Shown: positions 21,001 to 27,000 of the stretch, in pieces
Numbering within the stretch: position 1 is the stretch's first letter
Layout of the letters: the number at the start of each line of letters is the position of its first letter
Origin: a virus
Lineage: Duplodnaviria > Heunggongvirae > Uroviricota > Caudoviricetes
IMG/VR virus record: IMGVR_UViG_641736224_000031
Length of the DNA stretch: 42,289 nt
Direction: 5' to 3' (one strand)
Program-made: the position numbers

Positions 21001-24000
21001 TTCCTTTAATGAAATAACAATAAAAAATAAATCACAGAAAAACAACAAAACAACACACAAAAAAACCAAATAATAAACCCAAATAATCACCTTATTTTAT
21101 TATTTTTTGAGAGAGCTATTACTGAACAAAAAACGCTGACTATATACTCAAAACCAAACAACTATTCTGCCAATCAGGTATAATGGCAACACAAGGAATT
21201 ACCGTGTTTTTGCCTTCTCTGCCCATACAATACGGACATATACTTCATACTCTATTGTAATATTTCCATCCATGCGAACAACTTCATTTATCTGTAAATA
21301 ATATTCAAAATATTTATCACAGAAATCGTTTTTGGCCATGAACTGAGCACACTATAAAGTCCGGAACTGACTCTTTGTTAAATTACCTTAACGTTACCAG
21401 TAACACCTTCATAACAAAACATCACGGTATACACTGGGTACGGATATATTCCTGTGCTCCTTCCAGTTGCTTCTGCATTGCCATCAGCCGTTCTCTGAGG
21501 ATGAAATAATCCCGTTCAGCGGCTTCTGCCAGTCGGGGACCGGTTGCATTATCCACGCCGGAGGTGATGGGGGCTTTACGCAAGGAGCCTGGACAGTTGG
21601 CGTTGATGCGCAGGCGCTTACGACCAGCGGCAACATCAGCACGCAGAGTTTCATTTTCAGCTCTCGCATCGGCTAATTCCCTCGAGTATCTGGCATCAAG
21701 TGCAGCGACATCACGCTGGCGTACCTGCATATCAGTAATTGTCACGTTCGCCAGCTTCAGCTCACTGGCTTTTTTATCGCGTTGCGCTTTGTAGGTAATG
21801 GCGTTATCGCGGTAATGATTCAGCCCCAGACTAAGCACACCACAGGCTACCAGCAGGACAATAATCACCACACACAGAACACGGTTCATATCCCCCTCAC
21901 CCCACCAGCCATGACAAAGTTAAGACGCGCCAGGCAGTGGAAAAGCAAATAGCAACCAGCATTAGTGAAAATGAAATGCCGACGATTACACAGAGGATCT
22001 TCGCCAGCGTTATGAGCTTGTCTGACATGCTTAATCCTCTTCACGATTTCAACGCAATGACCAGTTTTGCCAGCCCATACAGCATCGGAGACACAGCAAT
22101 ACCGACCGCCACCCACTTAATAGCAAAAGCCAGCGCTCTGCTGACGTCATCAGTTACAGGCGCTTTCAGTTCAAGGCCGTTTTTCATAGTCAATCTCAAC
22201 AGAATTCGTTTATACTTTCCCATGTTCTCCCTTGCCTTACTCAAGGTCAGAAACACAAAACCCCGTTTGCGGCCAACAAACGGGGTTTTACTTTTATTCA
22301 CTTAGTTTTTGCCAGTTCGCAGGATTTCGTGTTATCCGCCAGTGTGAGCAAACCGCATTTTTCAGCAAAATATTCTGCTTATCTGTCAATTCCCCAGCAC
22401 GCCAGCGCGCTCTCCTGGTCACGCCGTGAAACCTGACCGTAGCAGTTGTTTGAGCGAATACGGCAGTCTCTGCCACCGTCCTTAATCCACCAGCGAATCG
22501 CCTCACACGCTCCCCTGCGATCACCTGCATTAATTCGTCTGTAAAACGTCGACGGGAAACACTTACCGGGACCAATGTTGTACGGACAGAATGACGCGAT
22601 CCCCGCTTTCTGGGGTTCGGTCAGCGGTACTTTAATATTGCGCTCCACCCACTCCAGCGCCTTATCACGTTCAATGGCGTTAACCTGGTCGCATTTTTCC
22701 TTCGACAACTTCATGCCCGGAACGACAGGTTTACCATCCACCAGGATGGCACCGCGGCAGATGGTCCAGATACCCGCACCATCACGGTATGCCGTGGTGT
22801 GGTTACCTTCTTTTTCGTCAAGAAACTGGTCGAGGATTTCAGGCGCAGACGCCCCTGCACCAATCAGCGCCAGAACGGCAGCCGACAGGCCGTATCTGAT
22901 TTTTGCGTTCATGGATATTTATCAGGGTTTATCGATTTCAAATCCCTGGATATGTTAAGTCTTCAGGCCAGCGGTGGAGTCTTCAGAGAACCCGTAATTA
23001 TTCCCGGTAGTTTTCCTCTGTAGGTTATCAACACATCCTGCGCCTCTAAAATTACGGGGCGCTTTTCCGGCAACGGACCATCCCCTTCACATAACCCGGC
23101 AGCAACATCCATGAAAAACTGCTTCGCCTGCTTTTTCGCCTCAGCTTCGTAAAACTCCAGCGTGGCACCTTCAGTACGGTCAAGACTAATCGCCACATCT
23201 GGCAACAACAGTGACGGATACCCACCAATTTCCGGTGCCACAGTAACAGTAATCTTATCCGGGTAATTATTTATCCCTTTAACACCCAGTTCGTATTTTT
23301 TCTTCATCGCTTTACTCCCCCCGCGCCGCCTTACGACGGTCCTCTCTGATTTTGAAATACAGGTTAGTCAGATACGTCAGCAGGCCAAACAGCAGACTCC
23401 CCAGCACACCGATTGCCACCCACTGGGACGGAGAGACTTTGTCCAGCAGCTGCAGTAACCAGTATCCCGTCCCCACCGCTGACGTGGTGTATGACACACC
23501 TGTTGTGATTTTTTCCATCTGATGTATGTCTCCGTCACCGCCGACAGAAAATGAAAGTAAAGGAAAACAAAAAGCCGCCAGTGTCGCCCACTGACGGCCA
23601 ACGCCGGGAGCCGTGATTATGGCATTCAGGCTCTGCTAAAAATGCCAGATAACATTCCGGCTCCCCCCCCTGATTCAGGTTATAAATGACACAATATCTT
23701 GACAACACCCATCACTGTCTGTCAGAAAATGTACTGCCAGATATAAGTATCATGTGAAACCCAACTATCCTTCTTAGCCAGTATGAACCGCCCCGGAAAT
23801 CCTGGAGACTAAACTCCCTGAGAAAGAGGTAAACAGGATGACTAAAAATACTCGTTTTTCCCCCGAAGTCCGTCAGCGGGCGATTCGTATGGTTCTGGAA
23901 AGTCAGGATGAATATGACTCACAGTGGGCGGCAATTTGTTCCATTGCCCCAAAGATTGGCTGTACGCCGGAGACTCTGCGTGTCTGGGTTCGCCAGCATG

Positions 24001-27000
24001 AGCGGGATACCGGGGGCGGTGATGGTGGGCTCACCAGCGCTGAACGTCAGCGTCTGAAAGAGCTGGAACGTGAAAATCGTGAACTGCGCCGCAGTAACGA
24101 TATCCTTCGCCAGGCTTCCGCTTATTTTGCGAAGGCGGAGTTCGACCGCCTCTGGAAAAAATGATGCCACTGCTGGATAAGCTGCGTGAGCAGTACGGGG
24201 TCGGACCGGTATGCAGCGAACTGCATATTGCCCCGTCAACGTATTACCATTGTCAGCAACAGCGACATCATCCGGATAAACGCAGTGCCCGTGCGCAGCA
24301 CGACGACTGGCTGAAGAGAGAGATACAGCGCGTATACGATGAAAATCATCAGGTGTACGGTGTGCGTAAAGTCTGGCGTCAGTTGTTACGGGAAGGAATC
24401 AGGGTGGCCAGATGTACAGTGGCACGTCTCATGGCGGTTATGGGACTTGCCGGTGTTCTCCGGGGTAAAAAGGTCCGTACGACCATCAGCCGGAAAGCCG
24501 TTGCCGCAGGCGACCGCGTAAACCGTCAGTTCGTGGCAGAACGACCTGACCAGCTGTGGGTGGCTGATTTTACTTACGTCAGCACATGGCAGGGCTTCGT
24601 CTATGTGGCGTTTATCATTGATGTGTTTGCCGGATACATCGTGGGGTGGCGGGTCTCATCGTCTATGGAAACGACATTCGTGCTGGATGCGCTGGAGCAG
24701 GCGTTGTGGGCCCGTCGTCCGTCTGGCACCATCCATCACAGCGATAAAGGCTCTCAGTATGTGTCACTGGCCTATACGGAGCGACTAAAAGAAGCCGGAT
24801 TACTGGCATCAACAGGGAGTACAGGCGACTCGTATGACAACGCGATGGCTGAGAGCATCAATGGTCTTTACAAAGCGGAGGTAATACACCGTAAGAGCTG
24901 GAAAAACCGTGCAGAAGTGGAACTGGCCACACTAACGTGGGTGGACTGGTATAACAATCGACGATTGCTGGGAAGGCTGGGCCATACTCCTCCGGCAGAA
25001 GCAGAAAAAGCTTATTATGCTTCCATCGGAAACGATGATCTGGCAGCCTGAGTTCACAGATAAAACACTCTCCAGGAAACCCGGGGCGGTTCAGTACTTC
25101 TCCGACGAAAGTCAGTACTGGCTGTTTTTTTATTATGCTGCCGGTGCATTTATCTCCAGCATCAGACTTTCTATCTCAACGCCATACGCTGCATTTTTTG
25201 TAACATCCGTCAGCGTCAGCGCATTCAGTCCCAGTGTCAGACTGTCTTTTATAACCTGGAATGCCGGGCCAGCCACTCCATTCAGTTTCGGAGTAACCAT
25301 GGCACTGCCGGCGGTGAACACCAGCTCCAGCGTCTGCCAGTCGTTACCGTAATCGCCGAACTCCCCCAGCTTCGTGTTTCCGGCTTTCCTGTGATGCATC
25401 AGATTCACCCTGCCGTCAGTGGTCTGAGTGAAGTACGACATCAGGAACGGATTACCGGTACCCGTCATCGCCACACCATCAGGAACGGGAGCATCCGTAT
25501 ACAGATAAATCCCCAGCCCGAACTGATTGTTGGTCAGTGCGCCTGACAGGCGGAACTTACAGGTCAGTCTGCCGCCCTGTGTCAGCAGGGTAATTGCGTC
25601 ATCCACCGGATGCGTCAGGGACCAGGTTTTATTGCTCTGCCTGGTGATCTTAAATACACCATCTGACAACTGAATTCCGCCATCCTTAATGCTCCAGCCC
25701 TGCGCAGCAGCCTCTCCGGCTGCCGGCAGCAGGGAGATTGTGCGAACGGACGTATCTGCAGACGGACCCGATGGCGTGTTGCCGCCGGGCGAGGGTTTGA
25801 TTTCCGGTGCCTTACCACTGATGAAGGCTGAGGTGCGCCCGGCTGCGTTCAGAATAGCGGTTGCCAGACGATCCGGAATAATGCTCCTGCGCGCCCATGA
25901 ACTGAAATGTGTCGGGCGGTTTGATGATACCTGGTTTCCATTCGTTCTCGATGCCGCACCGTAATATCCTGATGCCGGAATATCCGGATCTTCTGCCGGC
26001 GCGTTAGTGGCGGTATTGACGCCGTTACCGTCTGTCATGAAGGGCACAAAATAAACGCCCTCACTCTCCCTGTTTTTATACCCGCCGTACACGGTGTCGT
26101 ACTGGGTAGCGTATGTATTTTTCCAGTAATACGTCGTGTCACCACAAATCCACGGCACATCTGCAGCGCTGCCACCATGGCACTGCGCGTTAAACACGGA
26201 GAGGTCAGCACGAAACTGTGTCAGCATGGCTGTAAACAGCGCAGGTTGCTGTGCGTGGGTGGCGGCGCTCATGTCAAACTCACCCTGCATCCAGCAGACG
26301 GCCAGCAGAACGTTTTTGGGATTTTTCTGCAATGCCGCTTTTGTGCGGGAAATCAGATCCTGATATAACGGCTTGCCCACCCCCCAGCGTGCCGAATCCT
26401 GACTGGCCCCCGTGGACTCGCTGAATGTCCCCTCCGCGCCCTGGGTAAATGCCGAACCACCACGACAGCATGGTACCAGCAGGATCCCCGCGTTATTCGG
26501 GATATACGGGAGCAGTTTTTTGGCAATATGTAAACCCTGGCCGACACAGCCGTACTGCCCTTTGCTCAGGTCAGCCCTCGGATGATTCAGCGTACTCATA
26601 TCCTGCACATCATGCAGACAGTGGTCAGCCGGAATAATATCGTTATATCTGCAGGCAGCCCCGCCCGGCGTCACTGTACTGCGGCGCGCCAGCTGTTTAA
26701 TGCGCGGATCCGGAGCATCGTATGAATCCGGCAGCGGAAGCCCTTCACCGTAAGCCATGGCATTGGACTGCCCGGCCAGTACGATGACGTAGTACCAATC
26801 CGGCTCAGATGAAGGGCCGACCTGTGGCTCTCCTTCAATAGCCACCGCCTGCATCAGTGTGTACGGCGTAATGGCAACCGGTCCGCCGTATGGCTGCCAG
26901 CCCTCTTTCAGTTTGTGTGTCAGCTTTTCCGCAAGGTCTGACGGCGACGCCGCCCTGACAACATCATAATGTTTAATCGACATCGAATTTCTCCCGTGTA

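Follow-up and report, generated by a model that had tools for sequence, protein, structure and literature searches.

The insertions of the insertion sequence (IS) IS629 in Escherichia coli O157:H7 have been catalogued by Rump et al. (2011; PMC3271280). In that work IS1203 is treated as IS629 sub-type I, approximately 4% apart from a Shigella-like sub-type II, and target duplications of 3–4 bp are given for the element. The catalogued insertion 'IS.15: Sp14' (ECs_2744/ECs_2745) is one of just two IS629 sites found in every tested strain of the A6 clonal complex, and its target region is also present in A4 and A5 strains, which hold almost none of the catalogued insertions. Another IS629 copy (ECs_1208/ECs_1209) lies in Sp5, the Stx2 prophage of strain Sakai, between the late antiterminator gene Q with its promoter pR' and the lysis genes S, R, and Rz, in an orientation opposed to late transcription. 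A phage with IS629 inserted in stx2 (stx2::IS629) has been described as well, in which transcripts are found downstream of the IS, plaques are formed, and the IS is retained (PMC7430833). A further point of comparison is classical IS polarity, in which an IS upstream in a polycistronic unit adds untranslated, Rho-prone RNA.

The stretch of DNA considered here (the window) is the 42,289-nucleotide IMG/VR virus record IMGVR_UViG_641736224_000031, which is the lambda-like prophage Sp14 of E. coli O157:H7 and is annotated so in the Sakai genome record. Between a nanS-p type esterase gene and the S-R-Rz lysis genes it carries the same 1310-bp element, at the same site and with the same 3-bp duplication, as 'IS.15: Sp14'; the insertion is already annotated and published, and there is nothing new at the IS itself. 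The reading we favor, with a probability of roughly 0.75, is that an ordinary IS629 insertion, which interrupts no coding sequence and is now an old marker passed on clonally in the classical O157:H7 lineage, split a conserved terminator-like hairpin, and that late transcription is expected to read through it. The target of transposition would have been the 36-bp gap that follows the nanS-p stop codon, where an intact IS629 duplicated GTA and landed inside the left arm of the hairpin. Late transcription from pR' would be carried out by a Q-modified polymerase, resistant to terminators and to Rho, that would already have to pass a strong native terminator before S, so that the IS too would be expected to be read through.

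The element itself is typical of the IS3 family, in which IS629/IS1203 belongs to the IS51 group. Its length lies within 1.2–1.6 kb, its terminal TG...CA repeats are imperfect inverted repeats (13/13 matches at the outer end and 22/25 over the first 25 positions, when the left inverted repeat, IRL, is compared with the reverse complement of the right one, IRR), and its two open reading frames (ORFs) overlap in phases 0 and -1. The orfB frame is -1 relative to orfA, the overlap carries an A6 slippery run, and the match to the ALIL frameshifting pseudoknot spans that run. The 3-bp GTA duplication is of the short kind characteristic of the family. The copy equals the one annotated IS1203/IS629 in Sakai and has 1 mismatch in 1310 bp with the Sp5 copy; the Sakai record (NC_002695.2) lists it as repeat_region 'IS1203 Family: IS3' and names its IS629 transposase ORFs ECs_2744 and ECs_2745, and the Prokaryotic Genome Annotation Pipeline (PGAP) labels the transposase 'IS3-like element IS1203 family transposase'. 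With ORFs, frameshift signal, and both ends intact, the copy is plausibly still mobile. A first description of this DNA, made without database searches (the sequence-only reading), had named an IS629 of the IS3 family with orfA and orfB and imperfect terminal repeats, a GTA target duplication, a span of 23781–25096, and an orientation opposite to late transcription. Each of these points holds: the Pfam domains, the ALIL signal, and the Sakai match support the identification, the span comprises the IS plus both GTA copies, and the IS lies on the + strand with nanS-p, S, R, and Rz on the - strand.

The insertion is widespread and uniform. The IS plus its flanks are 100% identical to Sakai, EDL933, TW14359, EC4115, and many more O157:H7 genomes, and the occupied site with both flanks is found in 296 of 5426 complete E. 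coli genomes. Over 14.3 kb, 5 positions distinguish the window from Sakai, and none lies inside the IS. Four single-base differences lie at 27757, 27761, 20029, and 30403; two of the differences fall in a TerB-like gene, in which PGAP marks an internal stop in strain PV15-279.

An IS-free allele also exists. When the empty site was rebuilt in silico by deleting the IS plus one GTA, the resulting 168 nt were found at 99% identity or better in 94 E. coli records, with 30/30 among the matches listed being 100% identical; this query has a median of 5 matching places per genome, and O157:H7 has several nanS-p paralogues. The comparison with IS-free alleles that the sequence-only reading had proposed is provided by O157:H7 PV15-279, itself among the 94 records, which has an Sp14-type prophage with the gene order from Q to terminase kept, the PerC-family regulator included, and no IS. 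At the insertion point the sole structural difference from the window is the IS plus 3 bp (flanks 99.9% identical), and the GTA duplication and the boundaries of the IS are therefore settled.

Joining the flanks restores a hairpin composed of the arm AGCCAGTACT, a 15-nt spacer (TCTCCGACGAAAGTC), and the arm AGTACTGGCT. The split inverted repeat and its 15-nt spacer had been recognized in the sequence-only reading as a perfect 9-bp repeat; the split stands, and the count becomes 10 perfect pairs plus one G-U wobble. The spacer holds a small inner stem-loop (GAC/GAAA/GTC). The intact structure has a predicted folding energy of -18.7 kcal/mol (z = -5.3), and none of 200 shuffled sequences was as stable. 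On the + strand the 10–11-bp stem is followed by G and a T7 run, which is the form of an intrinsic terminator, and 1 nt separates the run from the stop codon of nanS-p. The - strand, which is the late-sense strand, has A7 ahead of the hairpin and no U-run behind it, so the terminator form is found in the antisense direction only. Because the T-run is on the strand opposite the late genes, the hairpin is most likely an intrinsic terminator for antisense transcription nearing nanS-p from the lysis side, and not a signal for the late transcript.

Comparison with related phages is consistent with this interpretation. In the curated record of phage 434 (OL657226.1) both homologous hairpin modules are annotated as complementary-strand terminators; 434 resembles Sp14 in having a putative antisense terminator with an A/T run as well as a late-sense one just before the ribosome-binding site of the holin gene. 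Phages 434 and H-19B differ from Sp14 in having two hairpin modules and not one, a C-G pair for a T-A pair, and no IS. The base-pair change is compensated, GCCAGTACT/AGTACTGGC in the Sp14 intergenic region aligning with GCCAGCACT/GGTGCTGGC in 434/H-19B. Approximately 110 copies in viral contigs represent two haplotypes only, which differ by one compensated pair and one wobble and so stand for few independent events; the A/T run beside the hairpin is invariant in all of them. The first 434/H-19B module, directly after the esterase stop codon, is more diverged and keeps an 8-bp stem with different bases. In both phages the two tandem modules (1579..1775 of the extracted 434 region), each an A-run plus hairpin, are about 150 bp apart after the esterase gene, where Sp14 has one, and the extra segment of about 146 bp resembles a duplicated module or a small insertion flanked by the hairpins.

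Another possible reading is that IS629, like certain other IS families, recognizes palindromes or hairpins, in which case the insertion would have been directed by structure. A survey of IS629 in IMG/VR contigs yielded 44 sites, 24 of them independent targets with a clear 3–4 bp duplication from which the target could be rebuilt. The Sp14 site and one other (L130) fold far better than shuffled sequences (z of -3.5 or lower), whereas the remaining 22 are unstructured, with z between -1.1 and +1.2. The 25-bp flanks of the 47 sites compared by Rump et al. (PMC3271280) had likewise shown no pattern, and the Sp5 copy, flanked by an AAAG duplication, truncates nanS-p within the 3' part of the coding sequence, at a target that has no hairpin. 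Intergenic terminator regions, moreover, simply tolerate insertions. Structure-directed targeting is accordingly given very little credence, and chance, together with the insertion tolerance of such regions, best accounts for the position of IS629 in the hairpin.

Whether splitting the hairpin matters is a separate issue. An altered antisense terminator, or loss of a stabilizer at the 3' end of nanS-p mRNA, might change nanS-p or antisense expression, and the insertion might have been kept in A6 strains for that reason. In favor are the conservation of the hairpin, which has one compensated pair beside an A/T run that never varies, its position next to the nanS-p stop codon, and the fixation of the insertion in A6 strains. 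Fixation is, however, equally explained by clonal descent, and the insertion undid only part of the structure: the IS end (..CA) followed by GTA and CT gives CAGTACT, by which 7–8 stem pairs are rebuilt with T7 intact, and the predicted folding energy of the right junction is -16.6 kcal/mol for the + strand (-12.3 for the - strand). A weaker hairpin with its T7 run thus survives at the right junction and retains much of the terminator form. As for transcripts that the hairpin could stop, the lysis region upstream yielded no strong promoter on the + strand, its two 9/12 matches being no more than occur in shuffled sequences, and the several nanS-p paralogues of O157:H7 also weigh against an effect of this kind, which we regard as very unlikely. 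The phage 434 record places a CII-binding consensus inside Rz (2815..2828 of the extracted 434 region), on the strand opposite the late genes; a CII-dependent antisense promoter there, if real, could feed transcripts stopped by the complementary-strand terminators. An extension of the same idea is that IS629 was retained by selection at the base of the A6 lineage, as a step in prophage domestication and not as a neutral marker, with late and lysis expression partly attenuated, or the antisense terminator disabled, so as to lock in the Sp14 virulence cargo (pchC, espJ, tccP). This we consider highly improbable.

The more consequential alternative is that of the sequence-only reading, in which an IS antisense within the late operon would be strongly polar, abolishing S-R-Rz expression from the Q-dependent promoter and blocking lysis by Sp14 while nanS-p was still expressed. 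For an ordinary polymerase, Rho-dependent polarity would indeed be favored. The antisense RNA of the IS amounts to 1.3 kb of untranslated sequence (11–19 stops per frame), with C in excess of G (30% vs. 24%) and several windows resembling Rho utilization (rut) sites, whereas intrinsic termination has little to act on, a single weak 5-bp terminator-like site on that strand. Polarity, if any, would thus have to act through Rho, and it is this kind that Q suppresses: Q-modified polymerase is a documented polarity suppressor, and Q accompanies the elongation complex across the late genes (PMC12360218). In this respect Sp14 would differ from classical cases of IS polarity, since suppression is to be expected in an operon read by Q-modified polymerase.

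The native arrangement of the operon points the same way. A strong late-sense terminator-like hairpin (Table 1) separates the insertion site from S, whose start codon follows 55 nt later; the hairpin is found in occupied and empty alleles alike, and its 434 homologue is annotated as a late-strand terminator. Since this structure precedes S in the IS-free allele too, only terminator-resistant polymerase reaches S; plaque-forming phage 434 has the same layout, a terminator stronger than anything on the antisense strand of the IS being followed by the holin gene. Sp5 offers a closer parallel, with an IS629 of the same orientation approximately 1 kb upstream of S and ahead of the lysis and morphogenesis genes. 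It is fully functional, being packaged to at least 1e10 per ml after mitomycin C and transferred to K-12 (Asadulghani, 2009; PMC2669165), and the stx2::IS629 phage is productive as well. The Sp5 copy lies at about codon 556/645 of nanS-p (4835..8086 of the extracted Sp5 region), such that ECs_1207 extends into the IS and the severed 3' end is ECs_5706; the paper (PMC2669165) nonetheless states that protein-coding genes were left undisrupted.

Transcription started by the IS is a further consideration. IS-borne outward promoters, which the sequence-only reading had raised, did not emerge: a consensus scan of both strands of 23200..25400 gave no sigma-70-like promoter, although the scan is insensitive and weak promoters are possible, and neither IS end, when its sequence was read, offered a credible hybrid promoter pointing outward. 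The literature searched yielded no expression data for ECs2741, ECs2743, or ECs2746, and many lambdoid genes could not receive specific array probes in the study of Asadulghani (2009; PMC2669165).

Several points weigh against our interpretation. The Q protein of Sp14 (PF06323 type) is unlike that of Sp5, which limits the Sp5 parallel to an analogy, and no solved or biochemically characterized close relative of Sp14 Q was found when one was searched for; a sequence search of the PDB gave a spurious match only and did not link this Q type to the structures of Q-lambda, Q21, or Q82. The paper on the stx2::IS629 phage (PMC7430833) does not say which way its IS is oriented. If Q modification were incomplete, some Rho-dependent loss would be possible. 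The terminator function of the split hairpin is argued from its sequence form, one compensatory change, and database annotation. For Sp14 itself, then, we infer both the antisense-terminator function and the weakness of polarity, the latter by analogy; late transcription is expected to read through the IS with at most a modest reduction of S-R-Rz, and strong polarity that blocks lysis is unlikely.

Lysis of the host is in any case a broader matter than the Sp14 cassette. Lysis genes are present in each of the 11 lambdoid prophages of Sakai; after mitomycin C the strain lyses from 2–3 h with strong induction of Sp5, Sp13, and Sp15 only, and most genes of the remaining prophages, Sp14 included, show no significant transcriptional change (PMC2669165). 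With lysis genes in all 11 prophages and Sp14 only weakly induced, the Sp14 cassette therefore does not decide host lysis, and the host-lysis block put forward in the sequence-only reading is not supported. The same study scores Sp14 lysis, together with DNA packaging, as conserved, and lists excision (xis), recombination, head, and tail functions as defective. That Sp14 DNA was not found packaged in Sakai might be taken as a sign of failed late expression; the DNA is, according to that study, excised only via regional replication from Sp15.

The sequence-only reading had further described the prophage as already packaging-defective. In the window this is accurate in one sense, the large-terminase gene being frameshifted into two ORFs by a C10 run, while the literature scores the packaging genes of Sakai Sp14 as intact, and NC_002695.2 has C9 at this tract and an intact 642-aa gene. 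The remark is thus true of the window sequence, for a cause absent from the published list of Sp14 defects. Many O157:H7 genomes have 100% matches to the C10 allele, as a rule 2 in each, and the run could be a common real frameshift, a slippage-prone tract, or a recurrent assembly error.

Table 1. Features of the Sp14 window around the IS629 insertion (window coordinates).
Feature	Position	Strand	Remarks
Left-arm remnant of hairpin	23776..23783		AGCCAGTA
GTA target duplication, left copy	23781..23783		Single GTA in empty allele
IS629 (IS1203 isoform), IS3 family, full length	23784..25093	+	1310 bp; ends 5'-TG...CA-3' (TGAACC...GGTTCA)
IRL	23784..23808	+	Begins TGAACCGCCCCGG
orfA	23838..24164	+	108 aa; HTH_Tnp_1, Pfam PF01527, E = 2.4e-12
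ALIL programmed -1 frameshift pseudoknot	24119..24235	+	Rfam RF01497, 121.5 bits (gathering score 50), model 1-117/117
orfB	24161..25051	+	296 aa; HTH_21 (PF13276) and rve integrase-core DDE (PF00665, E = 9.3e-28)
IRR	25069..25093	+	Finishes CCGGGGCGGTTCA
GTA target duplication, right copy	25094..25096		Single GTA in empty allele
Hairpin remainder	25097..25131	+	CT, 15-nt spacer, right arm AGTACTGGCT, G, T7
nanS-p type esterase gene	25133..26983	-	616 aa; DUF1737, SASA, DUF6645
Native late-sense terminator-like hairpin	23573..23599	-	11 pairs, 7 G-C, then TTTTGTTTT
S, class II (P21-type) holin	23312..23518	-	68 aa; Pfam PF04971, E = 8.8e-33; 434 homologue annotated pinholin
R, phage lysozyme	22379..22912	-	Pfam PF00959; hydrophobic N-terminus MNAKIRYGLSAAVLALIGAGA; signal-anchor-release (SAR) type by homology
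Perfect hairpin in lysis cassette	22257..22289		13 bp, A4/T4 flanks (AAAACCCCGTTTG...CAAACGGGGTTTT)
Rz (i-spanin)	21422..21889	-	Pfam PF03245; Sakai annotation
Rz1	21484..21669		Embedded in Rz
pchC (PerC-family regulator)	20643..20957	-	Regulator of the locus of enterocyte effacement (LEE)
Large-terminase gene, two ORFs	17532..19518	-	C10 run at about 19183-19192
STnc100 small RNA (sRNA) family match	27120..27292	-	Full-length Rfam match, 100.8 bits (gathering score 47)
Late antiterminator Q	28523..29218	-	Pfam PF06323, E = 4e-91; drives late operon crossing IS

The neighbors of the insertion are as the sequence-only reading had it, a NanS-p esterase gene (SASA and DUF1737 domains; 'SASA family carbohydrate esterase' in PGAP) on one side and a pinholin lysis cassette (P21-type class II holin, lysozyme, Rz) on the other. 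The 434 homologue of R is annotated as a SAR endolysin, and by homology S-R-Rz/Rz1 has the makeup of a P21-type pinholin/SAR-endolysin cassette. Q is 72.5% identical to Q of phage 434.

Other features of the late operon were also encountered. The 13-bp perfect hairpin, which separates R from the small ORFs preceding Rz, resembles a bidirectional terminator within the lysis cassette, which would be another structure that late transcription must pass. The STnc100 match sits inside the operon, between the DUF3927/TerB-like genes and the start of nanS-p. On the late strand pchC follows the IS, with Rz on one side and the terminase genes on the other, and would also be crossed by any late read-through.

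In practical terms the Sp14 site is already in use as a stable IS629 marker, part of the set of sites used for IS-printing and lineage typing. Were it true that the IS silences the Sp14 lysis genes, this would be one further small step in prophage decay, and with Sp5 and Sp15 driving host lysis and toxin release, these would stay unchanged even then. As a by-product, the comparison suggests that lambdoid phages of this kind hold conserved terminators opposed to late transcription just downstream of nanS-p, together with a late-sense terminator before S, a layout that bears on the insulation of nanS-p and the lysis genes in lysogens.

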